Below, in pieces: positions 1,369 to 29,051 of a DNA stretch of 30,107 nt (position 1 is its first letter; each line of letters begins with the position of its first letter). The notes under the pieces were generated by a model. The model searched no databases, was not told the DNA's origin, and saw nothing but the letters and a program-made list of their open reading frames with translations. Source of the DNA: a virus (Duplodnaviria > Heunggongvirae > Uroviricota > Caudoviricetes); IMG/VR virus record IMGVR_UViG_2698536535_000005, positions 1-30,107 of that record; one strand, given 5' to 3'. Both the position numbers and the translations under genes were made by a program.

Positions 1369-1444
1369 GCCGATATAGCTCAGTTGGTAGAGCAGCGCAT
1401 TCGTAATGCGAAGGTCGTAGGTTCGACTCCTATTATCGGCACCA
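1369..1444 (+). tRNA. thrW: tRNA-Thr (anticodon CGU)
   Basis: 76-nt sequence GCCGATATAGCTCAGTTGGTAGAGCAGCGCATTCGTAATGCGAAGGTCGTAGGTTCGACTCCTATTATCGGCACCA; acceptor stem GCCGATA/TATCGGC pairs, anticodon loop TTCGTAA gives CGT, encoded CCA end. Confidence 0.93.
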
Positions 1445-1610: not shown

Positions 1611-2825
1611 GTGAAACTCAATGCCCGTCAAATAGACACTGCCAAGCCAAAAGAGAAGGCTTACAAGCTGGCTGATGGTGGTGGTCTGTATCTCCTGGTA
1701 AAACCTAGTGGAGGAAAATACTGGCGCTTTAAATATCGTGTAGCTGGTAAAGAGAAGCTGTTAGCACTAGGTGTGTATCCTGAAGTTACCTTGGCTGATG
1801 CTCGTGCAAAACGTGAAGAAGCTAAAAGGGGTATCGCTGGGGGTATCGATCCGATGGAAGCGAAACGAGAGGAAAAGATTGCCCGGGAAACGCAGTTAAA
1901 CAATACCTTCAAAGATATTGCCCTTGAGTGGCACAGCAGCAAATTAAAAAAATGGTCTGCTGGTTATGCTTCAGATATCCTCGAAGCCTTCAACAAAGAT
2001 GTGTTCCCTTACATTGGCAAAAAACCAATCGCCGAAATCAAACCACTTGAACTTCTGAATGTGCTGCGACGCATCGAGGGGCGCGGTGCTACAGAAAAAG
2101 CCAAAAAAGTGAGGCAGCGGTGCGGGGAAGTTTTCCGCTATGCAATAGTCACTGGTCGCGCAGAGTATAACCCTGCCCCAGATCTTACTAGCGCGATGCA
2201 AGGCCATGAATCTAATCATTATCCTTTCCTCACAGCCAAAGAATTGCCTGATTTTTTCAAGGCATTGTCCAGTTACTCAGGAAGTGCATTGGTTGTTATG
2301 GCGGCTCGTCTACTGATTATCACTGGTTTGCGAACTGGCGAACTGCGCGGTGCATTATGGGATGAAATCGATCTCAACAAGGCTATCTGGGAGATACCTG
2401 CTTCACGGATGAAAATGCGTCGCCCTCATGTGGTGCCTTTGTCTAAGCAGGCTCTTTCTCTTATTGGGCAGATTAAAGAATTAACTGGTAATTATCCGCT
2501 TATGTTTCCCGGCCGTAATGATCCAAGGAAAACAATGAGCGAGGCTAGCATAAACCAAGTATTTAAACGCATCGGCTATAACGGAAAGGTTACTGGTCAT
2601 GGATTCCGGCACACCATGAGCACGATTTTACATGAGCAGGGCTATAACACCGCGTGGATAGAAACGCAGCTTGCACACGTTGATAAGAACTCAATTCGTG
2701 GCACGTACAATCATGCGCAATATCTGGACGGGCGGCGCGAGATGCTCCAGTGGTACGCCGACTATATGGATTCGCTCGAACATGGCGGTAACGTGGTGCA
2801 TGGCAAGTTCGGAAAATGTGGATGA
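1611..2825 (+). CDS. int: tyrosine recombinase, P4-type integrase (N-terminal arm-binding domain plus catalytic domain)
   Basis: 404-aa ORF, GTG start; N-terminus MKLNARQIDTAKPKEKAYKLADGGGLYLLVKPSGGKYWRFKYR is the typical P4-integrase N-terminal domain; C-terminal HGFRHT and trailing tyrosine region; lies directly next to the tRNA. Confidence 0.9.
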   Translation: MKLNARQIDTAKPKEKAYKLADGGGLYLLVKPSGGKYWRFKYRVAGKEKLLALGVYPEVTLADARAKREEAKRGIAGGIDPMEAKREEKIARETQLNNTFKDIALEWHSSKLKKWSAGYASDILEAFNKDVFPYIGKKPIAEIKPLELLNVLRRIEGRGATEKAKKVRQRCGEVFRYAIVTGRAEYNPAPDLTSAMQGHESNHYPFLTAKELPDFFKALSSYSGSALVVMAARLLIITGLRTGELRGALWDEIDLNKAIWEIPASRMKMRRPHVVPLSKQALSLIGQIKELTGNYPLMFPGRNDPRKTMSEASINQVFKRIGYNGKVTGHGFRHTMSTILHEQGYNTAWIETQLAHVDKNSIRGTYNHAQYLDGRREMLQWYADYMDSLEHGGNVVHGKFGKCG

Positions 2826-3978: not shown

Positions 3979-4176
3979 ATGTCAAATACGCTTATTCGTT
4001 TAACAGAAGTTCAGCGTAGAACTGGATATAGCAAGGCATGGATTTATCGCCTTATGGGGCAAGGTAAATTTCCTGCATCAGTTAAAATTGGCTCGCGAGC
4101 TATTGCTTTCGTTGAGAGTGAAATTGACGAGTGGATTAATCAGCGTATTGCGGAATCACGCGGAACAGCTACCTGA
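3979..4176 (+). CDS. alpA: AlpA-family prophage regulatory protein (excisionase-like HTH regulator)
   Basis: 65-aa protein LIRLTEVQRRTGYSKAWIYRLMGQGKFPASVKIGSRAIAFVESEIDEWINQR, the characteristic AlpA sequence pattern; GAGG Shine-Dalgarno upstream. Confidence 0.85.
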   Translation: MSNTLIRLTEVQRRTGYSKAWIYRLMGQGKFPASVKIGSRAIAFVESEIDEWINQRIAESRGTAT

Positions 4177-7352: not shown

Positions 7353-7643
7353 ATGAAAAAGAAAAATTCTGGCTTTACTGCCAGCGGCCTCTCTCGGCCT
7401 GAAATCCGCCCCGGTGATATTTCCCGGGACACCAGACGCGGGGGACGGGTGGTTATTCGTCACGTTACGCCAGGCAATATCACCTACCGCCGTGAGGCTT
7501 ACGAATATGACTGCGTAATGCCGCGCCGTCAGTTTGATCGTGATTTTATTCTGGTGGAAAACAAACAACAGGCAGTGGCGAGACGTGCAGCCACGAATAT
7601 TAAAAAAATCCGGGCAATGTTGGTTGCGGGAGGTAAGAAGTGA
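7353..7643 (+). CDS. hypothetical basic protein, early operon
   Basis: 96-aa ORF beginning 5 nt after the previous stop; its stop overlaps the GTG start of the primase gene. Confidence 0.5.
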   Translation: MKKKNSGFTASGLSRPEIRPGDISRDTRRGGRVVIRHVTPGNITYRREAYEYDCVMPRRQFDRDFILVENKQQAVARRAATNIKKIRAMLVAGGKK

Positions 7644-9445
7644 AAAACGCACCGAGTCTAAAATATCAGCCGAAGGATAAATTCACTGAGGTAATCATTT
7701 TTGCCGGGACGGATGCTTACGCCCATGCTCAACACTGGATTGAAAGTGAAGGACGAAAACACGGCGATAACGTGCCTCCTGTTTACCTGGGGCCAAAGCA
7801 ACTGGCAGACCTGGCGAATATCCGCATTATTGACGAGAAACGCCGTTTTGCGCGTGTCTATATCGCGGGGGAGATAGAGCCAATCCAGATCAATACTATC
7901 GCTGAAAAGCTGGCGCTGGCTGGCGTACAGGAGGCGAAATTATACAAAGGTATCACCGACCAGGAACCGGAGAACTGGCGCGACTACCTGCAACGGATCC
8001 GCGAACAGGCTGAGCACGGGGAAGTTTCAGTGATGAAATTAGCTACAAAAAATAGTGGTCTACCCAAGCCTGCATTAAATCAGATGGGAGCCAGCCAGAG
8101 AGGGGAAGTGTTACTTGAACATTATGGAGGAGCACTGGCGATAAATGATGATTCTGATGTAGTTCACCATTACAACGGAATTGTTTGGGAGCCTGTATCT
8201 GATAAGGAACTCCAGCGGTCTATGGCGAAGATTTTTATTGATGCCGAAATTAGTTATTCGCAAAACGCCATTAAATTTGCCGTAGAGACAATGAAATTGA
8301 GTCTACCTGTTATGGGGGGAGCGGACAGAAATCTTATTGGGTTCAGTAACGGTGTTTTTGATATCAGGACAGGAAATTTTCGGGAACACAACAAAAATGA
8401 CTGGTTGTTAAATGCCAGTGAATTACCGTTCAGCCCGCCAGAAGAGGGGGAAACGCTGGCAACACATGCGCCGAATTTCTGGAAGTGGTTGCGTCGTTCG
8501 GTGGCGGATAATGCTCGTAAAGCGGATCGCGTACTGGCGGCATTATTCATGGTACTGGCGAACCGGTACGACTGGCAGTTATTCCTTGAGGTAACGGGGC
8601 CGGGCGGAAGCGGTAAAAGTGTGATGGCGGAGATTTGTACCATGCTGGCGGGTAAGGCCAACACAGTATCGGCAAGCATGAAGGCTCTGGAAGACGCAAG
8701 GGAACGCGCGTTAGTAGTTGGCTTTTCGCTGATTATCATGCCGGATATGACTCGCTACGCTGGCGATGGTGCAGGAATTAAGGCAATTACTGGCGGCGAC
8801 AAGGTGGCAATTGATCCGAAACATAAAGCCCCCTACTCCACACGTATTCCGGCAGTAGTGCTTGCGGTAAACAATAACGCCATGTCATTCAGTGACCGAA
8901 GCGGGGGGATCTCGCGTCGTAGGGTGATATTTAATTTCTCTGAGGTCGTACCGGAGAACGAACGCGATCCCATGCTGGCGGAAAAGATAGAAGGCGAACT
9001 GGCGGTAGTGATTCGCCATTTGCTAACACGATTTACCGACCAGGACGAAGCTAAAAGACTACTTTATGAGCAGCAAAAATCAGAAGAAGCGCTGTTGATA
9101 AAGCGCGAAGGTGATTCACTGGTGGACTTTTGCGGCTATCTGATGTCGTTGGTTAAATGTGAAGGAATGATGGTGGGCAATGCGGAAATAGTGCCATTTA
9201 GCCCGAGGCGATACCTGTATCATGCTTATTTAGCCTATATGTCAGCGCATGGCCTGGGAAAACCAGTATCACTGACACGCTTTGGTACTGATATGCCAGG
9301 AGCTATGGCGGAATACGGAAAGGAGTATAAGCGGGCTAAATGCACTAAAGGCCCGGATAAAGGGCGAGTGATAACAAATGTTCTGTTAGATGATGATGCT
9401 GATGGCTGGTTGCCAGCAGCTACAGGGATTAACGACAGAACATAA
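7640..9445 (+). CDS. P4-family phage/plasmid primase-helicase (C-terminal P-loop NTPase domain)
   Basis: 601-aa ORF, GTG start after GGGAGG; Walker A VTGPGGSGKS and downstream Walker-B-like hydrophobic-DM stretch; overall resemblance to P4 alpha C-terminal / pri-rep proteins of satellites; iteron array immediately downstream. Confidence 0.75.
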   Translation: MKNAPSLKYQPKDKFTEVIIFAGTDAYAHAQHWIESEGRKHGDNVPPVYLGPKQLADLANIRIIDEKRRFARVYIAGEIEPIQINTIAEKLALAGVQEAKLYKGITDQEPENWRDYLQRIREQAEHGEVSVMKLATKNSGLPKPALNQMGASQRGEVLLEHYGGALAINDDSDVVHHYNGIVWEPVSDKELQRSMAKIFIDAEISYSQNAIKFAVETMKLSLPVMGGADRNLIGFSNGVFDIRTGNFREHNKNDWLLNASELPFSPPEEGETLATHAPNFWKWLRRSVADNARKADRVLAALFMVLANRYDWQLFLEVTGPGGSGKSVMAEICTMLAGKANTVSASMKALEDARERALVVGFSLIIMPDMTRYAGDGAGIKAITGGDKVAIDPKHKAPYSTRIPAVVLAVNNNAMSFSDRSGGISRRRVIFNFSEVVPENERDPMLAEKIEGELAVVIRHLLTRFTDQDEAKRLLYEQQKSEEALLIKREGDSLVDFCGYLMSLVKCEGMMVGNAEIVPFSPRRYLYHAYLAYMSAHGLGKPVSLTRFGTDMPGAMAEYGKEYKRAKCTKGPDKGRVITNVLLDDDADGWLPAATGINDRT

Positions 9446-9816: not shown

Positions 9817-10359
9817 ATGGGGCAAAGCATGACTAAGCTGACCATTAACAGAAAACCAAAAGGTATTTACGGCACGCCACAGAAAACGACGCAGGCGGCA
9901 CAGGAGCAGGATAAAACCACATCGGCGCATAAAGTGATGCCCGGTAACCAGAAAGCGCAGCAGAAGCCTACAGGGGCGACACCGTGGCGGCATATGACCA
10001 AACGCCAGCGCAAAAACCGCAGGCGCGTTAACCGCCTCACTGAGTTGTGGCCTGACTTATTCAGCCGGGAAGCACTGAAGCCGCTTAAGGTGGGGATATT
10101 CGACGACCTGATGCAGGATCTCGCCGTCAGGGGGCTGGCATTCGGGCCAGGGGCATTGCGTGCGACGCTGGCATCTTATGCGCAGTGTCCGCGCTATTAC
10201 CGCGCCTTAATGGCTGGTGGGGTACGCTACGACCTGAAAGGCCAGCCGTGCGGCGAGGTGACACCACAGGAACAACAGGACGCAGAAACGCGGCTGGTGG
10301 CGCTGAATGAGAAGCGCAAACGCCAGCGCCGGGCAGCAAAGGAGACAATAGGCGCATGA
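9817..10359 (+). CDS. FinO/ProQ-family RNA-binding protein
   Basis: Central region ALKPLKVGIFDDLMQDL...LRATLASYAQCPRYYRALMAGGVRYDLKGQPCGEVTPQE aligns by eye with the E. coli ProQ N-terminal FinO domain (PLKIGIF, LR.AL..Y, RY, R.DL.G.PCGE). Confidence 0.6.
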   Translation: MGQSMTKLTINRKPKGIYGTPQKTTQAAQEQDKTTSAHKVMPGNQKAQQKPTGATPWRHMTKRQRKNRRRVNRLTELWPDLFSREALKPLKVGIFDDLMQDLAVRGLAFGPGALRATLASYAQCPRYYRALMAGGVRYDLKGQPCGEVTPQEQQDAETRLVALNEKRKRQRRAAKETIGA

Positions 10360-10643
10360 TTCACGACAGCAAAGCGGAAGCACTGGAAGCGCGTGGTCTG
10401 TACCGGAGAGCGGCGGCGCGGTGGGCTGAGGTCATCATGCTGGCGAATGATGACAAGGCACGGGAACAGGCGGCAAAACGTCGCGCGGAATGTATCCACA
10501 AGGCAGCATGCCCACCAGCAAGGCAGGATAATTTCGGGGAGATGCGCGAAACCATCAGCCGGGCACATGCCGGGATGGGATTACATCAGCCCAATGGTGA
10601 GGCATTCAGGAAATACCAAAAAAAGAACAATTGTAGTCAGTAA
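10356..10643 (+). CDS. PerC-like small transcriptional regulator (tentative)
   Basis: 95-aa ORF with AAGGAG Shine-Dalgarno; N-terminus MIHDSKAEALEARGLYRRAAARWAEV resembles the PerC/Pch family N-terminal pattern as I recall it. Confidence 0.4.
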   Translation: MIHDSKAEALEARGLYRRAAARWAEVIMLANDDKAREQAAKRRAECIHKAACPPARQDNFGEMRETISRAHAGMGLHQPNGEAFRKYQKKNNCSQ

Positions 10644-10777: not shown

Positions 10778-11920
10778 ATGAATAAAACTTTAATTGCAAC
10801 ATTAGTCGGTATAGTAATGTTAACCGGATGTGGGCCAGAAGAGTTAACTCCAGAACAGAAACAGGAAGTAGCGGCTCTTAAAGCTGAACTGTCGCAAACG
10901 GAAGGTGAAATATCAGCAGCTAAGGAAGTTGACCAGCAGTTTTCTGGTGGGTTGATAAAAAATCTGACAACAGCAAGACTGGAAATATTAGGAACTAATA
11001 AAGCGCTTTTGGAACAGCGTATTAATGCTATTGAATCAGGTGCCAAAATTGATGTTGTTGTATCTGGAGTAAAACCTGATCCTGAGCTTGCGGCTTCAAT
11101 TAAAACTGAAATTGACAGCTTAGATGCAAAAATCAACGAAGCCAAAGCTGATGCTCGTCAGTATAGTGGTGGTCTGATAAAGGTACTAAAATTATCTACT
11201 GTTGCCACTGAAGAGCAGACCATGGCAATGTTGCAGCAAAAGTACCTCACAGCCAAGTATGGCCTCGCTGAAGTTAAGCTGGCATCAGTACAAGCTAATG
11301 ACGCAAAAAACAGTACTGAAACGGAAGTAACAGCCAAAAATTCCCAAGAGCAACTTCCTTTACTCCCGCCAGCGGATGGTCCGTTTGGCTTAGAAGCCGG
11401 TCTTACACAGAAAAACATCGAAGATATGATCGGTGCTAAGCTCAAGCCACTACCAGACAGTGTGAATCTGTATACTTCTGATAAATTACCGAAGCAAAAC
11501 GCAGATTTTGAAATGTATGGTTTGCTGATCTCCCCGAAAGCTGGTTTATGTCAAATACGGGCTTTAGGAAAAAATATTGATACTGATAGCTATGGATTGG
11601 CTCTTAAATCCAAGTTTGAAGAATTGAGTAATTCTTTAAGTTCTCTGTATGGAAAGGCTGATACTACAGACTTTTTGCTGGCTGGTTCAATTTGGAAAGA
11701 TCCTCAGGACTGGATGAGGGGGCTAAACAAAAAAGAACGCTTCTTATCTGCCACATGGAAGGGAACAAAAGAAATACCATTAAAAAACAATATCGATACT
11801 ATCTCTATTGAGGCCAGAGCGAACAATTCCACTCAGGGATATGTCTATCTGCAGTACTCATTTACAAATGACGAAATTTGTCAGGCAGAAATTGAAGGGG
11901 CGAAAAAAAGTTCCCTTTAA
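10778..11920 (+). CDS. lipoprotein with coiled-coil region and internal repeat
   Basis: Signal peptide MNKTLIATLVGIVMLTGC with LTGC lipobox; repeated motif QFSGGLIKNL / QYSGGLIKVL; AT-rich; intrinsic terminator directly downstream. Confidence 0.7.
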   Translation: MNKTLIATLVGIVMLTGCGPEELTPEQKQEVAALKAELSQTEGEISAAKEVDQQFSGGLIKNLTTARLEILGTNKALLEQRINAIESGAKIDVVVSGVKPDPELAASIKTEIDSLDAKINEAKADARQYSGGLIKVLKLSTVATEEQTMAMLQQKYLTAKYGLAEVKLASVQANDAKNSTETEVTAKNSQEQLPLLPPADGPFGLEAGLTQKNIEDMIGAKLKPLPDSVNLYTSDKLPKQNADFEMYGLLISPKAGLCQIRALGKNIDTDSYGLALKSKFEELSNSLSSLYGKADTTDFLLAGSIWKDPQDWMRGLNKKERFLSATWKGTKEIPLKNNIDTISIEARANNSTQGYVYLQYSFTNDEICQAEIEGAKKSSL

Positions 11921-11931
11921 ACAATCCGTGC

Positions 11932-11960
11932 AAAGCCCCTTAGTAAGGGGCTTTTATATA
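11932..11960 (+). terminator. intrinsic terminator
   Basis: Perfect inverted repeat AAAGCCCCTTA/TAAGGGGCTTT (11932..11954) followed by a T-rich tail. Confidence 0.55.
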
Positions 11961-11984
11961 TTAATGTTCAACGGGGGGGATTAG

Positions 11985-12308
11985 ATGAAAGATAATCTAG
12001 AAAAACTAATTGAAAATACTTTAAAAGATATTCTATTAGCTAATGCTGCTCTAACATTCATTTTTGCAATACCAATGGCTATTATCAGTAGGCATGGGAT
12101 GGGTATCACAATCTGGTTTATAACTGTGCTCATTGCACCTGCTCTGTGTGCAGTAGGTGCATGGCTTGTATCTCGAACATTCGGTCATGCTGAGGAGTTC
12201 TTTCATCGTCGGTGGGCTAAGCGAATCTATGTTTTTTATACTCTTGCGGCTGCCGAGTTTTTGCTTGTGTACTCAATCGCGCAAATAATGAAAAATCTGA
12301 TGAAATAA
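11985..12308 (+). CDS. small integral membrane protein
   Basis: 107-aa ORF with two or three long hydrophobic segments (ALTFIFAIPMAIIS, ITIWFITVLIAPALCAVGAWLV, IYVFYTLAAAEFLLVYSI); G-rich Shine-Dalgarno. Confidence 0.5.
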   Translation: MKDNLEKLIENTLKDILLANAALTFIFAIPMAIISRHGMGITIWFITVLIAPALCAVGAWLVSRTFGHAEEFFHRRWAKRIYVFYTLAAAEFLLVYSIAQIMKNLMK

Positions 12309-12711
12309 TTAACAAGTTATTATCATGGGGTTTGTGGCTGTTAACCTGCAGTGAGGCGACAATCGTGTATTTATAAAAACTTCCCCTTTTCACTCCCCGC
12401 TGTTTCTTCTGCTATTTCCTTTATGTTTGCATGCAGCAACATCTACCATACCTTTGCAGAAAAATCAGAGCATTTAGTGCCGAAGGTTGGTTTATTGATG
12501 CTTTTTGTTTCATTTATTGCAATTATTGTCATTCAGAAGGGATCATCATGAAAAATCACGGAGTAAAGCCAGTTTTACTTTCCCGGGGGCAGATCGAAGC
12601 CCTGTAACGTATCCAGGCCGAAAAGCGTCAGAAATCTGTGCTTGGTGTGGCACCGTCGATTCATGTTATTGCCCGGCAACTGATGGATAAGGCACTTAAA
12701 GAGGTGAGGCT

Positions 12712-12984
12712 GTGAAATTAAATATCAGTGTGGATAAACGCCAGCTATGGCAGAAAAAAGAGAACAGCGAGGCATTCAGGGCTTTGCTGGTGGAAAATCT
12801 TCGGCACCGGTTCAGTGGAGAGTTGCCTGATGCACTGGGGAAGAAACTGGAATCCCTGACGGTGGAAATTGGCGATTATGGCTTTGTTGATGTTGAAAGC
12901 ACGACTGCCAACACAGAAATCGTAAAGCAGGTCGTCAATGATGTAATGAAAACCACGCTTAGCCAGCCATCCTGGCGCAACTGA
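12712..12984 (+). CDS. hypothetical protein
   Basis: 90-aa ORF with GTG start after GAGGTGAGG; no recognisable motif. Confidence 0.35.
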   Translation: MKLNISVDKRQLWQKKENSEAFRALLVENLRHRFSGELPDALGKKLESLTVEIGDYGFVDVESTTANTEIVKQVVNDVMKTTLSQPSWRN

Positions 12985-13083
12985 ATCAGTAAGGGGCGGT
13001 TATTGCCCCTTTCCTCCATACCCACAACGCATTCCCTTTTCGCATGAAATTATTTTTTATCGTATATGCATGAGGTGAGTTAC

Positions 13084-13608
13084 ATGTTGATGAGTAAAGC
13101 CGAATACGCCAAATACAAAGGCGTAAGCCGCCAGACAGTTTACGACTGGATCGAGAAAGGCGAAGTGATCATGTCTGGCAAAAAAATTGATGTGGAGGCG
13201 ACAGAGCAGCGGAACAGCCCACCGGCACAGGGGAAAGACACCGTTTCTGAAATGTGGCCAGAAAGAACGCTGGAAATGACGTGGGGCGAGTTCTGGAAAG
13301 CAGTTAAGGCCAGAGACGGTAAAATCCCTGCGCCAGTAACGGACGACGACATACAGCAACGTGTGCTGGATGCAGCCGGGGAATTAGACTGGGAAGTGCA
13401 ATTTCTTGATGATGGCGGGATTTGGATGGATGACGGCGATGCTGAGTTTTATTTCGAGCAATATGATCTCAGGCAGAATGCCGAACTGGTGATTGGTACG
13501 CTGCGACGTGAGGTCTGTTATGTGGCTGATGCTTGTCCTGACGAGCTGGATAACTGGAGCGAAGCCGGACTAAACGCCCTGGCTGCATGGGAAAAAACAG
13601 GTCATTAA
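13084..13608 (+). CDS. HTH DNA-binding protein with acidic C-terminal domain (possible small-terminase-like or regulatory protein)
   Basis: Start taken at the ATG preceded by GAGGTGA (track ORF starts 13066); N-terminal MSKAEYAKYKGVSRQTVYDWIEKGEV is a phage-type helix-turn-helix; repeat array immediately downstream. Confidence 0.55.
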   Translation: MLMSKAEYAKYKGVSRQTVYDWIEKGEVIMSGKKIDVEATEQRNSPPAQGKDTVSEMWPERTLEMTWGEFWKAVKARDGKIPAPVTDDDIQQRVLDAAGELDWEVQFLDDGGIWMDDGDAEFYFEQYDLRQNAELVIGTLRREVCYVADACPDELDNWSEAGLNALAAWEKTGH

Positions 13609-13615
13609 CGGCCGC

Positions 13616-13821
13616 AAAAAGTGTCAAGTTGAGCAGCTTGCCAGGTTGGCACTTTACACTCTGAACACGAAAAAGTGTCAACCTCGCTGTAAACCCTGCC
13701 ATTACTGGCCTTGAGCCATATTTACCACGCCAGAAACCCGTGAAAACCGCGAAAAGTGTCAAGTTGTCATGCTTAGAAATGCCAGGGTTTTTCGCGAAAA
13801 AGTGTCAAGTGTGTCAACCTG
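13616..13821. repeat. array of AAAAGTGTCAA boxes (putative protein-binding sites)
   Basis: Five GTGTCAA cores at 13621, 13675, 13756, 13803 and 13811, most preceded by an A-run, between the HTH gene and the next small ORF. Confidence 0.6.
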
Positions 13822-14432: not shown

Positions 14433-15122
14433 ATGAACAAATCACCTACTGAGATAATTAATATGCTAAGCGATAAGTTCAATAGTAACTTTCGTGAATG
14501 GCAGGGCATACAAGATAAAAAATTAGATAAAGTAATTATCTCAATTTTCACTCTTAACACGATTGCTGAAATTTTGAATAAAAAGAAAACATCAGTTCAT
14601 CATGATGTTTGTATTAAAATTTTTAGTGAGATTATTGCTGATACGTCATCTTCTTTATATCTTTCTGCCTGTGCCATAGATAAACCAGCTAATATTGTTC
14701 TAAGGAGAGTTTTGGAACTAGGTGTCGCATCTATTTATCTTTGGGATATGCCTCATGTTGTATATTCTTGGAAAAATCATGATGAAGACTTAAGTTTCAG
14801 TGATATGTTGAAGCATATAACAAATCAAGGCTATATAGACTACTTCACAGAAAATGAGAAGATAGGAGGGAAAGTATGTGTTATTGATATGAGAAGAGCA
14901 CAGAAAATTTATGGACAATTAAGTGATATCGTTCATGGAAAAATAACCTCATTTGAAACTGATTTGCCTAATAAGTTCACTTTTGAAAGTGAAGATTGGG
15001 AGAGGTTCATAGGTCTGGCTGAGGTTGTTTTGGGTATGATAATTAATTCCAATATTGTTCGTCATAAGATAAGAAAAGAAGTGCTATCTTCATTTCCTAA
15101 ATCTAGTGAGGTAGTTTTATAA
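14433..15122 (+). CDS. hypothetical protein, component A of candidate two-gene system
   Basis: 229-aa ORF, strongly AT-rich; stop overlaps the start of the downstream ATPase gene (TAATG); no recognisable catalytic motif. Confidence 0.7.
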   Translation: MNKSPTEIINMLSDKFNSNFREWQGIQDKKLDKVIISIFTLNTIAEILNKKKTSVHHDVCIKIFSEIIADTSSSLYLSACAIDKPANIVLRRVLELGVASIYLWDMPHVVYSWKNHDEDLSFSDMLKHITNQGYIDYFTENEKIGGKVCVIDMRRAQKIYGQLSDIVHGKITSFETDLPNKFTFESEDWERFIGLAEVVLGMIINSNIVRHKIRKEVLSSFPKSSEVVL

Positions 15123-16852
15123 TGTCTATGTTAGACACTGAGTTATTACATGCAGCACGTACCGAAGATCTTGAGTTGAAACAGGTCAAACAACTGGCTG
15201 TTCTTGGTGAGTTTGAAAAAGATGTTGTAGCAAAACTAAAAATAGCGGGCTCTCATCTGATTCAGGGTGCCAGAGGAATTGGAAAGTCTATGCTTCTAAG
15301 AGCGGCAGAAGCTGAATTAGATAGTGATTTTCCTGTTAAAAAGATTGTGGGGGTATATGTTAATTTCAAAACCAGTACTTTGCTGGAAGGGGTTAAAGCT
15401 GACAATAAAAATGCATTTCAGATATGGGTAAGCGCTAAGTTACTACAAGCTTTGTACGAAAAGTTGATATTTTTAGATGTCATTCGTGACAATAATAGCA
15501 GTGATCCATTTCAAAGAATTTTTGGGATTAAAACTATAACTGGAATGAAAGATGCTCTACAATCTAAAATTCATCTGCTTCAAAGGTTATCAAGAGATCC
15601 TTCTTCAGATAAATTGTTGAATGAAATTGGAGAGGATTTTTTAGATAAGGTTAATGATATAAGTTATGTAAATGACATCATCAAGGAGATAATTCAAGAA
15701 TACCAACTTAATAGAATTGTTTTTTTATTTGATGAGGCTGCTCATACCTTTATACCAGAACAGCAGGAAATATTCTTCGAAATATTTAAATTGCTTCATG
15801 GCGGTAAAATTGCAGTTAAGGCGGCTGTATATCCGTCAATTACATCGTATGGTAAAAATTTTGAAGTTGGTCAAGATGCCATGATGATAAACCTCGGAGG
15901 ATACGAAACTGGAAATATTGGGCGGGAACGAACACGACGTTTATATCGTGATCTATTAGATAAACGGGTCACACAAGGAGCAGCAAAAAAGAGAATATTG
16001 GCTAAAGGTGATTTGCTAGATCAATGTATTCATCTTTCATCCGGAAACCCTAGAGCATTTCTCCATTTATTTAATAAAGTATATGAGAAAGGTTATACTG
16101 AAAGAGATCTTTTAACTTGCACTCAGGATTATGTCAATCAAGAATTATTACCTTATCATTTAGGGCTTTCAAAACGATTACCTAAGTATTCTCACCATGT
16201 TCGCATTGGACTTGATATTCTTAGGGAGTGTATTATCCCTGAGCTTAGATTGAAAAATAACAGAGAGAAAAAGACTCAAACCCAATCTGCTTTTTTTGTT
16301 CTTCCTCCCGTTATTTCTCCAAATCTTAGATTGTCTCTAGATTTGCTTTGTTATTCTGGTGTTCTTTCCAAGCAAGGGTCCGTGAAGATGTCTAATCGAA
16401 AATCGGGTCAGCGCTACATGGTTAATTTATCATTACTTTTCACTGAAAAAGCATTCGTATCTAATAAGTTCGGGGAGATAATAACACTATTATCTCTCGC
16501 TGATTATAAAGAATTTGGCGCAGCAGATTCTGAATTAGAGCGTTTTTTAGAAAAATTGAAAGAATCAGCTGATGAGTGTCAAACTTGTTCCGCTGAGTTA
16601 CCTGGAGATGCGAAGTTTTGTCCTAAGTGTGGGACACCTGTACCAACAAGGTCAATTGTAGGACAACTTCTTGATGATCCGGTTAGTTGCTTGTCAATTA
16701 GTAACGCAATATGCGACCGAATAAAAGAAACCTATCCTAAAGTGGGTGATATCGTTCACTGTTCGAGGGATGATCTGAAAAAAATACCGTACATTAAAAA
16801 TGTTAGGTCAAAAATAATCAAGAACGCAGCGGATGAATATATCTCAGGCTAA
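15122..16852 (+). CDS. Orc1/Cdc6-like AAA+ ATPase with C-terminal zinc ribbon and HhH (RNA polymerase alpha-CTD-like) domain, component B
   Basis: 576-aa ORF; Walker A GARGIGKS, Walker B IVFLFDEAAH, sensor-2-like SGNPRAF; C-terminal CQTC-x11-CPKC zinc ribbon; last ~60 aa resemble the RpoA alpha-CTD; GAGG Shine-Dalgarno; terminator downstream. Confidence 0.8.
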   Translation: MSMLDTELLHAARTEDLELKQVKQLAVLGEFEKDVVAKLKIAGSHLIQGARGIGKSMLLRAAEAELDSDFPVKKIVGVYVNFKTSTLLEGVKADNKNAFQIWVSAKLLQALYEKLIFLDVIRDNNSSDPFQRIFGIKTITGMKDALQSKIHLLQRLSRDPSSDKLLNEIGEDFLDKVNDISYVNDIIKEIIQEYQLNRIVFLFDEAAHTFIPEQQEIFFEIFKLLHGGKIAVKAAVYPSITSYGKNFEVGQDAMMINLGGYETGNIGRERTRRLYRDLLDKRVTQGAAKKRILAKGDLLDQCIHLSSGNPRAFLHLFNKVYEKGYTERDLLTCTQDYVNQELLPYHLGLSKRLPKYSHHVRIGLDILRECIIPELRLKNNREKKTQTQSAFFVLPPVISPNLRLSLDLLCYSGVLSKQGSVKMSNRKSGQRYMVNLSLLFTEKAFVSNKFGEIITLLSLADYKEFGAADSELERFLEKLKESADECQTCSAELPGDAKFCPKCGTPVPTRSIVGQLLDDPVSCLSISNAICDRIKETYPKVGDIVHCSRDDLKKIPYIKNVRSKIIKNAADEYISG

Positions 16853-21449: not shown

Positions 21450-21502
21450 TTTTTATCACCATAGTAGCGCCGTAGAGCGTGATTACATCAAGGAGATTTT
21501 TA

Positions 21503-22072
21503 ATGATTAATGAAGAACAATTTGTAAAAGTTCCTATGTGGATTCTAAAAATAAGCCAAGTAAACGGGCATAAATTTACAGATAGTGCTAAAAACCTTTA
21601 CTGCTATTTGAGAGGGTTTGATCGTGCATTTCCCTCTTACGCTAAGATAGGCGATGTTTTTGGCATAACACCAAGAGCAGCAGAAGAAAGGGTTAAGAAA
21701 TTGCTCGAAATGGGATTAATTATAAAAGATGCACGACCAGGAAGCTCTAACCTTTATCGAGTGCTTGATATTCCAAAAGGAGAATCATCACTACCTGATC
21801 CTTCTGAGAAAGAAGACGAATCTAATGAAATATTGAATGTTTCCGAAATCATCGTTGAAGAAGAAACACAGGAATCAGAGTTCCCTGAGCGGCCCGAAAT
21901 TTTTACTTGGCTTCTTTCCCTTGATAAGAAGAAACCACCGCACGAAGAAACAGAAGATTTTGTAAAACGTGCATTAGATTCAAAGAATATCTATCTTGAG
22001 AAACAGGCTTTTCACGATCTGATAATATCTCTAAGAGAAAAAAGTGAAATATACGATTCAATACCATTCTAA
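21503..22072 (+). CDS. winged-helix/HTH protein with acidic C-terminal region (possible replication initiator or regulator)
   Basis: Start at the ATG preceded by AGGAG (track ORF starts 21479); N-terminal PMWILK...NLYCYLRGF...IGDVFGITPRAAEERVKKLLEMGLI is HTH-like; acidic tail. Confidence 0.5.
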   Translation: MINEEQFVKVPMWILKISQVNGHKFTDSAKNLYCYLRGFDRAFPSYAKIGDVFGITPRAAEERVKKLLEMGLIIKDARPGSSNLYRVLDIPKGESSLPDPSEKEDESNEILNVSEIIVEEETQESEFPERPEIFTWLLSLDKKKPPHEETEDFVKRALDSKNIYLEKQAFHDLIISLREKSEIYDSIPF

Positions 22073-22081
22073 GGAGAATAA

Positions 22082-22351
22082 ATGACTTATAACATCACTA
22101 TAGGAAACAAAACTATTGAAATAACTGAAAGCGGATACAACATTTTAAAAGCTATTTTGGACATAGAGTTCTCACCCCCGACAGTGGTTAGCTTTTGTAG
22201 TTTAGGCGGCTACAGCGCACAACATGTGAATCATTGGTTAAACCATTTTACATCGTTCGGTGTGCTGGATTATGAAGGGATTAACCACACTACATTTCGT
22301 CTTTTGAAATTAAACAAAGATTTTGAATTGTTTATCACAAACAATCAATAA
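22082..22351 (+). CDS. hypothetical protein
   Basis: 89-aa ORF with AAGGAG Shine-Dalgarno. Confidence 0.5.
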   Translation: MTYNITIGNKTIEITESGYNILKAILDIEFSPPTVVSFCSLGGYSAQHVNHWLNHFTSFGVLDYEGINHTTFRLLKLNKDFELFITNNQ

Positions 22352-22447
22352 CAACAGATCGGGCAATACATATGGCAAATGCATTTATGGCGATATTCAT
22401 CGTAACAATGGTATCAAGTTTTTATAATCCACATAAAAAGAAGGAAA

Positions 22448-22831
22448 ATGGGAAGAAAGAAAAAGAACAACTTAAAACGTATTGAAAAAAACAGTAACTT
22501 CAATTCAACAAGACAACGTCCACCGACACACACCAATAACGAAATTCCAGGGGAAGAGATAATATTTATTCTTGAAACAGAATCCCCTGAATTAAGCGAT
22601 GAAGAACAAGAAATAATCAAATCAATGCCAGGCGTTTACTTTCGCCCAAGAACAAGAAAACAAACAATAATTTCTGATGGCACTCTGAAACGTTGGCAGC
22701 TTTTAGGGTTTAGCTCCTATCATCATTTTTTGGGATTTAACGCTTTCAATAATTGTGTAGGTGGTGCATCGGAAGTCGATCTGATGGCTCATTTAGAAGA
22801 TACATTAGCTTCTAACAAACGCTCTAACTAA
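22448..22831 (+). CDS. hypothetical protein
   Basis: 127-aa ORF with AAGGAA Shine-Dalgarno; basic N-terminus. Confidence 0.5.
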   Translation: MGRKKKNNLKRIEKNSNFNSTRQRPPTHTNNEIPGEEIIFILETESPELSDEEQEIIKSMPGVYFRPRTRKQTIISDGTLKRWQLLGFSSYHHFLGFNAFNNCVGGASEVDLMAHLEDTLASNKRSN

Positions 22832-22846
22832 TAAAAGGATGGTCGT

Positions 22847-23092
22847 ATGTATAAGCGCCCAATGAAAATATTCGAAAAAGGAAAAATAATGATTGGCTAT
22901 ATTCAAGAAACACAATTATTTCAGATGATCCTGTCTGATGCAAAAAACTATGCTGAGTTAATCCGACTGGCAAAAGAAACAGAAGACTACGAAGCATTAG
23001 AGCGTTATCGTGATGAAGTGCTGACGCTCAAGACACCTTTTAACATCGTATTGAATATGATTAATGATGCATTACAAGGAGAAGCCGCATAA
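22847..23092 (+). CDS. hypothetical protein
   Basis: 81-aa ORF with AAGGA Shine-Dalgarno. Confidence 0.45.
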   Translation: MYKRPMKIFEKGKIMIGYIQETQLFQMILSDAKNYAELIRLAKETEDYEALERYRDEVLTLKTPFNIVLNMINDALQGEAA

Positions 23093-23403
23093 TGGAAGAA
23101 GATATTAGCAATGCAATGGAACAACTTTTAGATCTGACTATCTCACTACAAACAAGAATAAATCAAGCCTATTCAGATTTATGCGATTACACGCTCTCTC
23201 AATGCGTTATTAGCTTAATGAAGGTGAATGTAAGCCTTGACGATTTTATCTCTCTGGTGAGCGATTTAGAGCTAATTGAGGACGATGCCAAGATGTGCAC
23301 TCAAACCATCACAGACACCGCCAGCACGTTAAAGGCTGCAAGTGAAGAGATTCAGCAATTAGTAGATGATTTAGCAAAAAGTGCTATTCCCTCTAAATGG
23401 TAA
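23092..23403 (+). CDS. hypothetical acidic helical protein
   Basis: 103-aa ORF; start overlaps the previous stop (TAATG). Confidence 0.45.
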   Translation: MEEDISNAMEQLLDLTISLQTRINQAYSDLCDYTLSQCVISLMKVNVSLDDFISLVSDLELIEDDAKMCTQTITDTASTLKAASEEIQQLVDDLAKSAIPSKW

Positions 23404-24391
23404 TGAAAATCATTTGCATTTATATAATAAAAATGTTATATTAGTATTAAGGGTAGATAAAAAGGTTTTGACTGGTGTTAATCCTTCTACTGTCATAAAT
23501 CCCTGCATATGGAAGGTGATAGCCTCAAGGGTTGAGTGGCATTAACCTCTAACAAATATTACCTTCCATCTCTCAAGAAGTTTTAGAATAATCATAACTC
23601 CCTCTTTGATTGTTGATTGTTTCTACGTTGTGTTGATGAATGTTGTTAGGCATTGTGCTTAATTTTGATAAAAGCGGGTAGGTGTTATCTCCTTGCCCTT
23701 CCCGCTCTTATTTTTCATCTATGCTTATCCTAAAGCTCCTTATTTTGTCCGAAAACATTAAAGAGCCTTACACTGATAGTTATATTTTATAACTATTTAC
23801 TAACATCATTAAACTCTTATTTAATGACAGAAGTTAGTAACAGAATAATCTATTAAGTTGTTGTCAAAAAACTATCATCTGCATAGCGTTAGCCGCAAGC
23901 AGAGAGAGTTTAGCTAAGAATTGTGCAATAACCTTTGGAAATATTGATAGCAAAACGGGTTTTATAGACTGCAAATCTATAATCTTTGGTTGTAAAAACG
24001 CTTTTTCTGAAACGGTAGATTATTGTTGGTGTAGTTAATCCCTATTAAAATTTAATCTGTGAGTAGATTGGAATAGTGATTCCTTAAAATCTGACTGGTG
24101 CATCCACACCATGAAAGATAGCGGTTAGCCACCGCACCCGAATAGATATTCCTGATTGATTCCGCATGTTTTCCTAAGAGCATGTTTTCAGGAATATCTG
24201 TTCACCCTTTAAACCTATCTTTAAGCATGTTTAATAAGCATTCTTAGAGATACGTTTAAAACCTCCTCAAGGTTTTACTTATCGCTGTGTATTGCCCGAC
24301 ACGTTAATAAATCCCCCTCGCTATTCTCAGATTGAACCTCTTATAGCCTGGGGGATTTATTAAATTCCAACATAATGGAATCGTTATATAA

Positions 24392-24601
24392 ATGAAACAA
24401 GAAATTATCCTGAAATATGGCAATGAAAAGTTAACACTAACTGAAGATGTGTTGAATGCTACAGCCTACGCGCTTGGTATCACTCCCACAGAATTAAAGA
24501 AACAGTGTGAACGTCTTTATAAGGCTGAAAGCAATAAACCATCTCACCAAGATTTGATTAATGCTAAAGCTCAACAAATCAAACAATCTAAGGAAAAATA
24601 A
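24392..24601 (+). CDS. small hypothetical protein
   Basis: 69-aa ORF; stop overlaps the start of the next gene. Confidence 0.4.
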   Translation: MKQEIILKYGNEKLTLTEDVLNATAYALGITPTELKKQCERLYKAESNKPSHQDLINAKAQQIKQSKEK

Positions 24602-24975
24602 TGGCTATTTTAAAATTAAGCGATGTTTTCCTACATCGTAAAAGCATCACTGACGTAGTGAGCTATGCAACCGACCCTTACGCGGCTGTAGAAAGCAAAA
24701 AATTTGCAGCACTTGCACAAGATGTAACGTGCGGCGACCTCATTGATTCATCCGGCGCTAAATATGTTAGCGGCGCTGATGTTCTTGTCGTTGTGTCTGA
24801 CTTCGTAACTGCTGATTCAAATAAAACAGTTAACGTGCTTCGTGCTAATGCCGGACTCGTTTGCATCAAAGCTGATGCCCTGAATGCCGAAGGCGCTGTA
24901 AAAGAAGCTGCTATTGCAGCTCTCGCTGCTAAAGGCTTCCAGCTTGAAGGCTTCCACTCTGTTTTCACATCTTAA
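24601..24975 (+). CDS. hypothetical protein, possible virion decoration or scaffold-type protein (speculative)
   Basis: 124-aa ORF immediately upstream of a ~340-aa gene, the lambda D-E type arrangement; Ala/Val-rich; no direct motif evidence. Confidence 0.5.
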   Translation: MAILKLSDVFLHRKSITDVVSYATDPYAAVESKKFAALAQDVTCGDLIDSSGAKYVSGADVLVVVSDFVTADSNKTVNVLRANAGLVCIKADALNAEGAVKEAAIAALAAKGFQLEGFHSVFTS

Positions 24976-24991
24976 GAAGGAATAAATAATA

Positions 24992-26020
24992 ATGATTATC
25001 GGAAATGAAGTGGTTGATCTTGCTCCACTGTTCGAATTAAACGACTCACGCAATTACCTACTGTCTACTCTGGATTTTACTGATCCTGTGCCTGTAGAAA
25101 GTCACAAAGTGGCTGTTTCCCAGCTTATCGAGAGCAATGAATCTCTGTTCAACCATCCTACAAGCCGTTTTAGCTCTGAGCATAACGTTACTAAGCGTGA
25201 GAACGGGGAAGAATATCTTATTGAAATCCCGTACTTTTTAAGGGAAGACCTGATCAAACCGCAGGACGTGCAAGGCAAACGCAAAGCCGGAAGCTCTATT
25301 GAAGAAACACTGCCGGATCTGTATGCGGAATATATCGCTAAACACAATGTTGCATTCCAGCGCACTAAAGAAAGCATCCTCGCGGCTTCTCTGTTCTCTG
25401 GCAAGACACACACCCCGAAAACTGACGATGTTCTGATCGATTACAGCACTCTGTTCGGTGTGTCTCCAATGACTGCAACCGTTGACGCATCCAGCACCAA
25501 CACAATGACCGTATTCAAGCAATTTGATCAGATGCATACGGATATGATTGCTAAGGCACAAAGCCAGGCTGCAACCATTGAGCGTGTTGTTGTGTTCTGT
25601 AAACCTGCGGCATTCAACGCTATTCGTTACAGCGTTGGCATGGTTAATGCGTTCCAGTATGCAAGCCCTGTAGACGATGCAAACGTGGTGTTTAATGTGC
25701 GTTCTCTGCTGCCTGGTGTAACTACTTTCACCATTCCAGGAACTAACATTGACCTGATCAAAGTGACTGATCCGCTGCTGCTGGCACATATGACCGCTGA
25801 CGCTGTAGCTATTCCTAAACTTGCTAAGGGGGCAGGTGTTTACCAAGCTATTTTTGGTGCGCCTTCCAGTTCATTCGATCTGCTGTCTCAAGGCGCTAAA
25901 GAGTATTACAGCTATGCTTTCGAATCGAATCGCGGCGACGCAGTGCACGTAGTGACCGAGAATAGCTCGCTTGTGGTTAACCACGGTGTTGGCTTCTCTG
26001 TGCAGATCACAGTAGCGTAA
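24992..26020 (+). CDS. hypothetical protein, possible major capsid-like protein (speculative)
   Basis: 342-aa ORF with strong AAGGAA Shine-Dalgarno; size and position after a ~120-aa gene resemble the lambda gpD/gpE arrangement; similarity to gpE not demonstrable by eye. Confidence 0.55.
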   Translation: MIIGNEVVDLAPLFELNDSRNYLLSTLDFTDPVPVESHKVAVSQLIESNESLFNHPTSRFSSEHNVTKRENGEEYLIEIPYFLREDLIKPQDVQGKRKAGSSIEETLPDLYAEYIAKHNVAFQRTKESILAASLFSGKTHTPKTDDVLIDYSTLFGVSPMTATVDASSTNTMTVFKQFDQMHTDMIAKAQSQAATIERVVVFCKPAAFNAIRYSVGMVNAFQYASPVDDANVVFNVRSLLPGVTTFTIPGTNIDLIKVTDPLLLAHMTADAVAIPKLAKGAGVYQAIFGAPSSSFDLLSQGAKEYYSYAFESNRGDAVHVVTENSSLVVNHGVGFSVQITVA

Positions 26021-26172
26021 AAAGTGTTAAAGACGTTCCCCTACGTCTGGAAATAATCGGGGCAATAAGGGTAAGGGATAATCATATAAGCAAAATATGC
26101 GCTGTCTCTTGCCCTTTTTGTTTTTCTACTGTCTACAAACCTAAATAAAAATATATATGTGAGAGAAAACCA

Positions 26173-26370
26173 ATGAACACAGAAAATTCACAGGCATTAA
26201 TTCTTAAATCTGTAAAAGAACTGGCAGCTATTAGCGATGACTCAATAATCAATGTCAGTGCCTTATGCAGAATGCTTTCAATTGATGCAAATAATGTGCG
26301 TCAGCGTGTCTTTCAGACTGGATGTAGCACTTTCGAAGCAATCCAATATTATTGCTCTAAAAAACAATAA
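26173..26370 (+). CDS. small hypothetical protein
   Basis: 65-aa ORF between two larger genes on the same strand. Confidence 0.4.
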   Translation: MNTENSQALILKSVKELAAISDDSIINVSALCRMLSIDANNVRQRVFQTGCSTFEAIQYYCSKKQ

Positions 26371-26404
26371 CAAATAACAATCATAATACAGGGAAACAAT
26401 TAAC

Positions 26405-28246
26405 ATGTTAGAGCTAAACGTGGCACGCCTCTCGAACGTTGTCACCTTCGAAGTTAACCGACCATCATTAGAGAAAGCAAAAGCAGAAGTAGAAAAACTT
26501 CGTAAACAAATGGCGGCGGTGAAAGATATAGAATTGCGTGTTAAGACACATAAACAATCAACCGCTAAAGCAAAAAAAGACGTAGACGATATTGCTAAAA
26601 AGCAAGCACAGGCTGATAAAGCTAATGCTAAAGCACAATTAGCCGCTCAACGTGTAGTTGCAAGAGAACAAAAAGCCCTGGCAGCACGCAAAGAGAAGGC
26701 AGAATTAAAGCTTTTAGACGTTGGAGCAAGCATTAGTGCAATGCACCGTCTTTCTGTAGCGGAACAATATAAAGCTATTGCACAGGCTAGAGAAATTGCC
26801 CTCCAATATGAAAGAGGCGCTATTAGTCTGGCACGTATGAATAGCCAAATGAAACGCCTACAACAGCAACAACGTAAGATTAATGGCAATCGTAACGCTC
26901 ACGCTAAAGCCTATGCACCTGTTAAGGGTAGCGGGAGTATTGGCGGCGGTGCTGCGGCTGTTATGCTGGGTGGCTTAGGCGCTGGCGCTACGTATATGGC
27001 TATGAGCAAAGCCTCTGAATTTGTTACTAACAGCTTTGCGAATGCTGAAACGCTGGGTGAATTGTATAGCCGTGCGAAGCTGGGCGGTGTAGACGTTAAC
27101 CAGATGAACAATATTGAGCAATGGGCCTACAAAAACGGCGTTGATTCAATGATGGGCGAACAAGGTCGTAGGAAGTATCTCGATCAGATGAAAGATGTAC
27201 GGGAGAAGGCTACTAAATCTTATGATGAGGCTGAATATGTAGTTGATAAGAAAACTGGTAAAGGAGAATGGAAGGGCGGCGATAGCGGCATCAATACTTT
27301 AATGAATGAAGGATTCCTAACTAAAAAGGATCTAAAAGACTTTGCTGATAATCCGGCTGGTCTGGTTAGTAAAGCAGTTCAGGGAATGGTAGCTAAAGGC
27401 TATTCAGATGCACAAATCGGTAGTCGTCTGGAAGATCTGGCTGATGATTTGATGCTCACCTCTAAATACTGGACACGCTCCGCTAAAGAAGTGGAACAAT
27501 CAGCACGAGAACAACGAGAATCAGGGCGCTGGGTAACGCAGGCACAACAGGAAAGCGTTATTAAATTCCGTGAACTGAATAATGCACTTAGTGGGCTTTC
27601 TGACTCACAAGGGATCGCCTTTGTTGATGGCTTTATGAAATCTCTTGATCCGAAAGTGATTGAAGAGTTTAAAAAGAGCATGGTTGCAATGCTGCCAATG
27701 TTTACCAAATTAGGCGAGGCTATCGGCGGATTGGTTAACGCCGTAATGAAAACAATCAACTGGCTGATGAAAAACGACGAGAAGACGGAAGCTATTCAGA
27801 AGAATTTAGGGGATGCACCGCCACTATCTAACGAAGGAATGAAGCAGAATCTTTCTAATCTCACTCCTGATCAATATAAAGGCGCTGGCACCGGAACAAC
27901 TAAGCCAGATAACAGCAATTCCCTGGTTAACACTATTAAAAGCTGGTTTATGCCAGAAGAAACGGTAGGTGGGGCGCAGGCTGTAAATCAATACAGTCTC
28001 GAAGGACAAAATATTGCAAATCTGAAACAGAGTGCAGCACAACAAGCTTTCAAGGCTCCTTCTTACACCTTTGCACCTGTTATTAACTTCAATCCAGAAT
28101 TACAAGTAAATGCAGAAGTGCCGCTAACTATCGAATCAGACACCGGACGATTGAGCGAATTTATCGACTTCAAATCAAAGGCATCTTCCGCTGAGTTTAG
28201 CAAGCTATTAACGCTGGGTGTTATGTCAGGCGGGTCAACCTATTAA
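26405..28246 (+). CDS. large coiled-coil protein with Gly-rich hydrophobic segment (tape-measure-like or internal virion-like; function unknown)
   Basis: 613-aa ORF; N-terminal ~130 aa Lys/Ala-rich coiled coil; GSGSIGGGAAAVMLGGLGAGATYMAM hydrophobic Gly-rich segment; no enzymatic motif. Confidence 0.6.
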   Translation: MLELNVARLSNVVTFEVNRPSLEKAKAEVEKLRKQMAAVKDIELRVKTHKQSTAKAKKDVDDIAKKQAQADKANAKAQLAAQRVVAREQKALAARKEKAELKLLDVGASISAMHRLSVAEQYKAIAQAREIALQYERGAISLARMNSQMKRLQQQQRKINGNRNAHAKAYAPVKGSGSIGGGAAAVMLGGLGAGATYMAMSKASEFVTNSFANAETLGELYSRAKLGGVDVNQMNNIEQWAYKNGVDSMMGEQGRRKYLDQMKDVREKATKSYDEAEYVVDKKTGKGEWKGGDSGINTLMNEGFLTKKDLKDFADNPAGLVSKAVQGMVAKGYSDAQIGSRLEDLADDLMLTSKYWTRSAKEVEQSAREQRESGRWVTQAQQESVIKFRELNNALSGLSDSQGIAFVDGFMKSLDPKVIEEFKKSMVAMLPMFTKLGEAIGGLVNAVMKTINWLMKNDEKTEAIQKNLGDAPPLSNEGMKQNLSNLTPDQYKGAGTGTTKPDNSNSLVNTIKSWFMPEETVGGAQAVNQYSLEGQNIANLKQSAAQQAFKAPSYTFAPVINFNPELQVNAEVPLTIESDTGRLSEFIDFKSKASSAEFSKLLTLGVMSGGSTY

Positions 28247-28293
28247 TCATCACTGTGGGGCGGTTTAGCCCCCTTAAATAAGGATTACAAATT

Positions 28294-28971: not shown

Positions 28972-29012
28972 CCTTAAACACCTATGAAACGCTCTGTAAC
29001 GAGATAATCATA

Positions 29013-29044
29013 AAAGAGGCATTAGTCTATATTGAAGCCTCTTT
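29013..29044. terminator. possible bidirectional terminator hairpin between convergent genes
   Basis: AAAGAGGC/GCCTCTTT 8-bp stem with a 16-nt loop; weak T tail; low support. Confidence 0.25.
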
Positions 29045-29051
29045 ATTACGT

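Follow-up and report, generated by a model that had tools for sequence, protein, structure and literature searches.

Arc and Mnt of phage P22, CopG of pMV158 and omega of pSM19035 are small repressors of the MetJ/Arc/CopG superfamily, which share the ribbon-helix-helix (RHH) fold. RHH repressors that regulate their own synthesis are usually encoded first in their operon, with a palindromic box beside the -10 element of the promoter. The fold is also found in the antitoxins of type II toxin-antitoxin systems, such as ParD, RelB, MazE6 and TacA. Here we describe a small gene that probably encodes an RHH-like protein and that is interrupted by a nonsense codon in one lineage of a phage satellite. 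It lies in a 30,107-nucleotide (nt) stretch of viral DNA (Caudoviricetes; IMG/VR record IMGVR_UViG_2698536535_000005, positions 1 to 30,107), which was analysed over its whole length and is called the window below. The gene order of the satellite, from the integrase to a PerC-family activator gene, is that of phage-inducible chromosomal islands (PICIs) from Gram-negative hosts (PMC6739421, PMC9026076). In the literature on the described PICI EcCICFT073 and its Rpp protein (Fillol-Salom et al. 2019, PMC6739421) we found no description of a small RHH-like gene. Our literature search likewise returned no paper linking an RHH protein to an Escherichia coli PICI and none describing the family of 55-amino-acid (aa) proteins reported here.

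Results

A nonsense codon interrupts a 55-aa reading frame

A reading frame on the plus strand opens with an ATG at 12548-12550, 6 nt downstream of the Shine-Dalgarno sequence AAGGG (12537-12541). Codons 1-19 (MKNHGVKPVLLSRGQIEAL; 12548..12604) are the only stretch that can still be translated from this ATG, as codon 20 is a TAA (12605..12607). The frame stays open for 35 more sense codons, and this now untranslated remainder (RIQAEKRQKSVLGVAPSIHVIARQLMDKALKEVRL; codons 21-55 and the stop, 12608..12715) ends in a TGA at 12713-12715. The start, the TAA and the open frame beyond it had been noted in an earlier sequence-only reading, and direct reading and translation agree with it on all three. 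The frame does not end at 12711, as was stated there, since the TGA shares 4 nt (GTGA) with the GTG start of the next gene at 12712. A 4-nt overlap of the GTGA type is the usual geometry of translationally coupled genes, which are translated in tandem.

The same reading had proposed a decayed gene, and intact homologues with CAA instead of TAA and an uninterrupted 55-aa product were indeed found in related islands. For instance, in Res13-Lact-PEB20-37-A the same frame is annotated as a 55-aa coding sequence (CDS; WP_001723129.1) with a 4-nt overlap into the next CDS, and its translation is that of the window frame with Gln replacing the stop. Annotations of related E. coli genomes list the open reading frame (ORF) as a CDS, and codon 20 is CAA in every intact copy read (loci L001 and L006-L011, including O104:H4, APEC IMT5155, MS8345 and WP2-W18-CRE-03). 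Residues 1-19 are identical in the window and in the intact protein of locus L001. In the DNA alignment with a relative, the sole base difference in codon 20 is a C-to-T transition at 12605, which turns CAA (Gln20) into TAA. When codon 20 is read as CAA, the window product is 55 aa long and identical to a protein cluster (P0001) present on at least 1000 public contigs.

The TAA allele marks one lineage of the island

The distribution of the allele was determined by a megablast search of 5,426 complete E. coli genomes with positions 12300-13100 of the window (801-bp query). The region was found in 131 genomes, and exactly four of them carry the TAA allele, namely SCU-316 (USA), PCP06173 (Ecuador), WWCOL-236 (South Korea) and N921 (Switzerland); the other 127 lack it. 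A 63-nt query centred on the stop matched 73 E. coli genomes, four of which were identical and 69 of which differed in one base. SCU-316 is identical to the window across the 801-bp query and shows one gap across 3.8 kb. RefSeq annotates the interrupted frame in none of the four TAA genomes.

Two further changes are linked to the stop. A 41-nt query spanning the junction of a 39-bp deletion upstream of the gene hit the four TAA genomes and no other. A T at 12729, the cause of an Arg6Ser change (R6S) in the next, 90-aa gene, is likewise present in the same four genomes and in no others. These three lineage-specific changes are not clustered beyond expectation, as 7 differences in 1,727 nt upstream separate the window from its nearest intact relative, a background that is no less dense. 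Therefore we regard the three changes as markers of one lineage of the island. In PCP06173 (locus L003) about 700 bp more have been lost (equivalent to window 13003-13701), including the whole 174-aa winged helix-turn-helix gene that follows the 90-aa gene, and the operon is therefore eroding further in that strain.

The intact protein resembles ribbon-helix-helix proteins in its predicted fold

Searches of Pfam, PHROGs, NCBIfam and the PDB with single sequences and profiles gave no match for the 55-aa or the 90-aa protein. Pfam had no match at E up to 1 for any of 33 family members (the 55-aa protein and 32 relatives), and the PDB none to the 55-aa protein, neither by sequence nor by profile. 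An AlphaFold model of the single chain, built on 20 homologues, has a mean predicted local distance difference test (pLDDT) value of 78.9 and consists of an extended N-terminus (residues 1-12), a helix (13-29), a loop and a second helix (38-54). This corresponds to the beta-alpha-alpha topology of about 45-50 residues that is typical of RHH proteins, and the best structural matches of the model are RHH proteins; Foldseek returned nothing significant with it. A sequence match to a curated RHH family, such as Pfam RHH_1, CopG or Arc, was not obtained. The intact protein is probably a small RHH-like protein that is predicted to bind DNA. An intertwined beta-ribbon dimer and sequence-specific DNA binding are putative features, read from the model of the monomer.

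A conserved palindromic box lies beside the -10 element of the small gene

When the window was scanned for consensus sigma-70 promoters and for terminators, nothing came up around the gene, and the promoter was recognised only through comparison among genera, for which 110-120 bp upstream of the small gene were used. This revealed a conserved 17-bp imperfect palindrome, (A/G)TTTCA-N5-TGCAAT. Of the 18 loci examined that have an intact gene, 17 carry a box that starts 48-59 bp 5' of the ATG, and for 12 of them the start is -49 or -50. In 9 of 13 non-Escherichia loci an exact TATAAT (-31 to -38) comes directly after the box, and a strong Shine-Dalgarno sequence after that. Escherichia and Serratia silvae have a second copy of the box at -79/-80, and Leclercia has one at -85. 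The box adjoins the -10 element and therefore fills the spacer next to it, a place expected of a repressor operator or of the site of a MerR-like activator. The architecture, compared in loci L012, L014 and L017-L030, spans positions 12507-12529 of the window.

The Escherichia relatives carry two copies of the box about 30 bp apart, as well as a short ATTGCAAT duplication. The window, on the other hand, lacks 39 bp that are present in all other Escherichia copies (in the region 1712-1766 of locus L001). This segment is flanked by two 16-nt direct repeats (CATTTATTGCAATTAT and CAATAATTGCAATTAT) that lie 39 bp apart in the relatives, and only one repeat copy is left in the window, at the deletion junction (ATTGCAATTAT; 12516..12526, plus strand). 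The deletion takes the promoter-proximal copy of the box and reduces two boxes to one. The sole surviving box (GTTTCATTTATTGCAAT, of the form ATTTCA-N5-TGCAAT; 12507..12523, plus strand) abuts TATTGT (12524..12529, plus strand), a presumed -10-like hexamer that directly follows the box in the place of TATAAT elsewhere.

The small gene is the constant head of a variable operon

All plus-strand ORFs of 20 loci were scanned with hidden Markov models. The small gene was detected in 20 of 20 loci, while the 90-aa gene was confined to Escherichia and the 174-aa gene to Escherichia and Rouxiella. Because the small gene occurs in all loci and its neighbours vary, it appears as the constant head of an operon with a variable body. 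With about 50 aa, a predicted extended N-terminal segment and two helices, and a position first in the operon and 3' of a promoter whose -10 element adjoins a palindromic 6-N5-6 box, the gene resembles those of the RHH repressors. We propose that the 55-aa protein is a regulator for three reasons: its likeness to RHH proteins, the place of its gene at the head of the operon and its joint inheritance with the boxes while the downstream genes change. It would normally bind the 17-bp boxes and regulate the operon, most likely by autorepression. In the TAA lineage both the regulator and one of its two sites would then be gone.

Several observations weigh against this proposal. Unlike the RHH repressors, the 55-aa protein has no detectable sequence similarity to any RHH family. 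The putative beta-strand, VKPVLLS, contains an invariant proline and is unusually hydrophobic for a ribbon that reads bases, and the 8-residue loop between the helices exceeds that of classic RHH proteins in length. PerC, AlpA or a factor of the helper phage could just as well be what binds the boxes, and the joint occurrence of the three lineage-specific changes may simply reflect common descent.

In a stronger interpretation, the protein and its boxes form the on/off switch of a post-replication operon for interference and packaging, and the loss of regulator and operator was selected rather than being neutral decay. If this were true, the downstream TerS-like gene would be deregulated, for example constitutive, and a mobilisable satellite would have been turned into a fixed anti-phage locus. 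We consider such a selected loss unlikely.

The 55-aa and 90-aa genes are unlikely to form a toxin-antitoxin pair

The fold-level resemblance to RHH antitoxins and the 4-nt overlap with a downstream gene of about 90 codons would also suit a type II toxin-antitoxin system, with the 55-aa protein as RHH antitoxin and the 90-aa protein as toxin. The nonsense codon would then be tolerated because the toxin (by R6S) or the promoter (by the 39-bp deletion) has been disabled as well. However, the 55-aa protein comprises only the RHH core and ends right after helix 2, at residue 55, without the C-terminal extension by which antitoxins bind and neutralise their toxin. It also lacks a conserved partner: the 90-aa gene is absent from most loci that carry the small gene, and in other genera the next gene is unrelated and encodes a DUF5681 protein or a tape measure protein.

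The 90-aa gene itself (12712..12984, plus strand) is intact. It starts with the GTG that overlaps the TGA of the pseudogene and has a Shine-Dalgarno sequence of its own (GAGGTGAGG; 12701-12709, plus strand). Its protein falls into only 8 database clusters; among the loci compared it is confined to Escherichia, and one Citrobacter protein is found in the database. No toxin family was matched in the library searches, and the protein has no net charge as counted from its sequence. Matches to LRR kinases were discarded as spurious, as they arise from the sum of many sub-threshold repeats. In this gene 15 nucleotide differences lead to only 2 amino-acid changes. R6S (AGA to AGT, 12727-12729) is restricted to the TAA lineage; position 6 is Gln in one distant homologue and hence not invariant, a further point against such a pair. 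Taken together, a toxin-antitoxin pair is quite improbable. In APEC20/16 (L016 500-736) the small gene is intact, but the annotation of the 90-aa gene begins at a later start and gives just 78 aa, which suggests an independent lesion at the 5' end of the 90-aa gene.

The TAA allele is predicted to be null

The change of CAA to TAA at codon 20 would halt translation after 19 residues, before either helix is complete. The 3' remainder codes for most of helix 1 and the whole of helix 2; because these are removed, the truncated product should not be able to fold or dimerise. As the only restart codon, a GTG at 12638, has no ribosome-binding site, the allele is expected to be null. The 90-aa gene would still be translatable from its own ribosome-binding site and start, and its coupling to the upstream frame would be lost.

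As the frame is open past the TAA and contains this in-frame GTG, the stop might alternatively be functional, either by readthrough or recoding or with the two halves made separately, as a 19-aa peptide and the product of a 25-aa GTG ORF (12638-12715). This is very improbable. The TAA is found in only 4 of 131 genomes and all others have a sense codon there, no unusual RNA structure was detected around or after the stop (z = 0.29), and Rfam has no family in the pseudogene interval. Moreover, the GTG is not preceded by a Shine-Dalgarno sequence, a restart would yield helix 2 alone, and neither fragment holds both helices. To our knowledge, TAA does not serve as a recoding signal in E. coli.

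A sequencing or assembly error at 12605 in a gene that is really intact, as might be suspected from a single base off the majority allele, is extremely improbable and can be set aside because the T, along with the linked 39-bp deletion and the T at 12729, recurs in four complete and independent assemblies, each of a genome from a different country.

Intact orthologues form a family under purifying selection

The two most distant E. coli copies (loci L001 and L006) differ by 13 synonymous and 9 non-synonymous codon changes, corresponding to a non-synonymous divergence (dN) of 0.088, a synonymous divergence (dS) of 0.62 and a dN/dS of about 0.14; residues 27-53 are unchanged. These results show that purifying selection acts on the intact orthologues and that they evolve like a gene coding for protein.

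Relatives of the 55-aa protein are few. A word-indexed protein search gave 27 clusters, and no more than 57 family members (representatives counted at 50% identity) came from a profile search run exhaustively on 1.84 billion representatives; nearly all have 45-80 aa, and they are always labelled 'hypothetical protein'. A locus search with the family alignment added 14 further loci from 12 genera, in which the Shine-Dalgarno sequence and the synteny are kept. All members whose organism is named in the source belong to the Enterobacterales, with the genera Escherichia, Citrobacter, Pantoea, Mixta, Rosenbergiella, Rouxiella, Erwinia, Serratia, Rahnella, Leclercia, Lonsdalea, Chimaeribacter and Symbiopectobacterium. 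The invariant or nearly invariant positions include K7, P8, L10, Q15, I22, Q23, R27, S30, G33, A35, P36, H39, R43, D47 and L50. Codon 20 encodes Gln in E. coli and Arg or His in other genera. Four members (P0010, P0024, P0025 and P0027) are independently frameshifted or truncated. The 55-aa gene thus defines an Enterobacterales family that is not annotated in Pfam, PHROGs or NCBIfam and that looks like a new group of small RHH regulators.

The frame is very small and lacks any family annotation, but that it is a random ORF called by annotation pipelines in the relatives is extremely improbable, given this dN/dS, the conserved residues and its presence in at least 12 genera with the same synteny and a proper Shine-Dalgarno sequence. 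The substitution pattern also contrasts with that of an ORF upstream on the minus strand (12371-12532), which is annotated as a 66-aa CDS by RefSeq/PGAP in relatives. In the window this frame contains a TAG at 12443-12445 and is shortened in frame by the 39-bp deletion. Its substitutions are 8 non-synonymous to 1 synonymous; we rejected it as a second pseudogene, as it is probably not a real gene.

The operon follows the replication block of a PICI-type satellite

The window starts with proA-like sequence, followed by a tRNA-Thr (CGT; thrW, 1369..1444, plus strand, from the tRNA call), which is the integration site of the island. The tyrosine integrase of the island is encoded at 1611..2825 (plus strand). 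Between its gene and a 267-aa ORF there is a match to the Rfam int-alpA RNA motif (2870-2937), which scores 45.5 bits and exceeds the gathering score. An AlpA-like 65-aa gene (3979..4176, plus strand; called from a reading of the sequence) is followed by an AntA-domain gene, a DUF4222 gene and a primase-helicase gene (pri-rep; D5_N/DUF5906/Pox_D5, 7640..9445, plus strand). A ProQ/FinO-domain gene (9817-10359, plus strand) and the PerC-family activator gene (10356-10643, plus strand) come next. The element therefore has int, alpA and a primase-replicase gene in the same orientation beside a tRNA gene and is devoid of a full set of virion genes; family scans of the window found no virion genes between 1.6 and 21 kb. 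Judged by this gene content, the host element is a PICI-type phage satellite at tRNA-Thr, with induction, replication and packaging by a helper phage as putative traits.

In other E. coli islands the 55-aa, 90-aa and approximately 174-aa genes directly follow PerC. In the island type of the window, genes for a 380-aa lipoprotein-like protein and a 107-aa membrane protein (10778-12308) lie between PerC and the promoter of the small gene. They are missing from loci L006-L008, neither matches a family, and the insertion looks like accessory cargo. The small ORFs after it had been taken for possible remnants of a former cargo module in the sequence-only reading. This was not supported, as the 90-aa gene and the 174-aa gene (13084..13608, plus strand) are intact and strongly conserved, and the module as a whole is therefore not decayed. 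Rather than cargo, the three genes are a conserved operon placed after the replication, ProQ and PerC block of PICI-type satellites.

The position of the small gene is similar in other genera. In Mixta the primase, a ProQ-PerC fusion and two uncharacterised ORFs precede it, and a DUF5681 protein follows. In Rosenbergiella the primase and SSB, joined in one of two loci by ProQ and PerC, come before the small gene, which overlaps a gene for a lambda-type tail tape measure protein of about 948 aa (L014 6001-9020 and L015 6001-9011). A tape measure gene is unusual cargo for this satellite-like Rosenbergiella island, which otherwise carries replication genes only.

At its N-terminus the 174-aa protein carries a winged helix-turn-helix of the TerS/Xis/Rpp type, and its C-terminal domain has no family match; the genes downstream of the pseudogene have Shine-Dalgarno sequences of their own. 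In Rpp an N-terminal winged helix-turn-helix mimics the DNA-binding domain of TerS, and in the 174-aa protein only the generic winged helix-turn-helix can be superposed. Unlike Rpp of EcCICFT073, however, it shows no similarity to RppC or TerS even by profile, and its C-terminal domain is unrelated. Its identification as Rpp was rejected, as neither the single sequence nor a 36-sequence profile matched RppC or TerS in the PDB. The protein may work like Rpp by analogy; membership is unsupported by sequence, and heterodimerisation with TerS would be putative only. No lambda-type cosN was found near the module. A cosN candidate at 24729 with 1 mismatch was discarded, as it is at chance level (mean 1.01), lies inside an ORF and has no cos-like context.

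Further downstream, two overlapping genes at 14433-16852 encode proteins of 229 and 576 aa. The larger product, an ORC/Cdc6-like AAA ATPase that carries a zinc ribbon at its C-terminus, weakly matches the NCBIfam anti-phage family DS41_1 (E 2e-6), with a score far short of the cut-off for that family. In the island's larger ORFs, including those at 14433-16852, PADLOC recognised no known defence system. We regard the two genes as candidate defence cargo of the satellite.

The satellite is followed by a second compact phage-like element at about 21479-30050. It encodes an O-like replication initiator (21479-22072), a major capsid protein E (24992-26020), a tape measure-like protein (26405-28246), a Dit-like tail protein (28294-28971) and, on the minus strand, a tyrosine integrase (29052-30050). 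This element is a candidate second satellite or prophage remnant.

Discussion

We conclude that positions 12548-12715 are very likely a nonsense pseudogene of an RHH-like, operon-leading putative regulator in a PICI-type satellite, which is the best joint explanation of our data. The stop, the intact homologues and their purifying selection, the restriction to one lineage, the synteny and the conservation of the boxes are shown by the data. The RHH fold of the 55-aa protein is predicted from the structure model, and its DNA binding and regulatory role are proposed.

The pseudogene is an ordinary lineage-specific nonsense mutation in a small regulator family that had not been described. In itself it is of minor importance, a routine mutation that is silently dropped by automatic annotation. 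How the late or interference genes of these satellites are controlled is not addressed in the literature that we found. The small gene, which heads a variable operon behind a promoter/operator conserved across genera, is a testable candidate for this control, and the natural allele with the TAA and the 39-bp deletion provides a ready-made loss-of-function variant.
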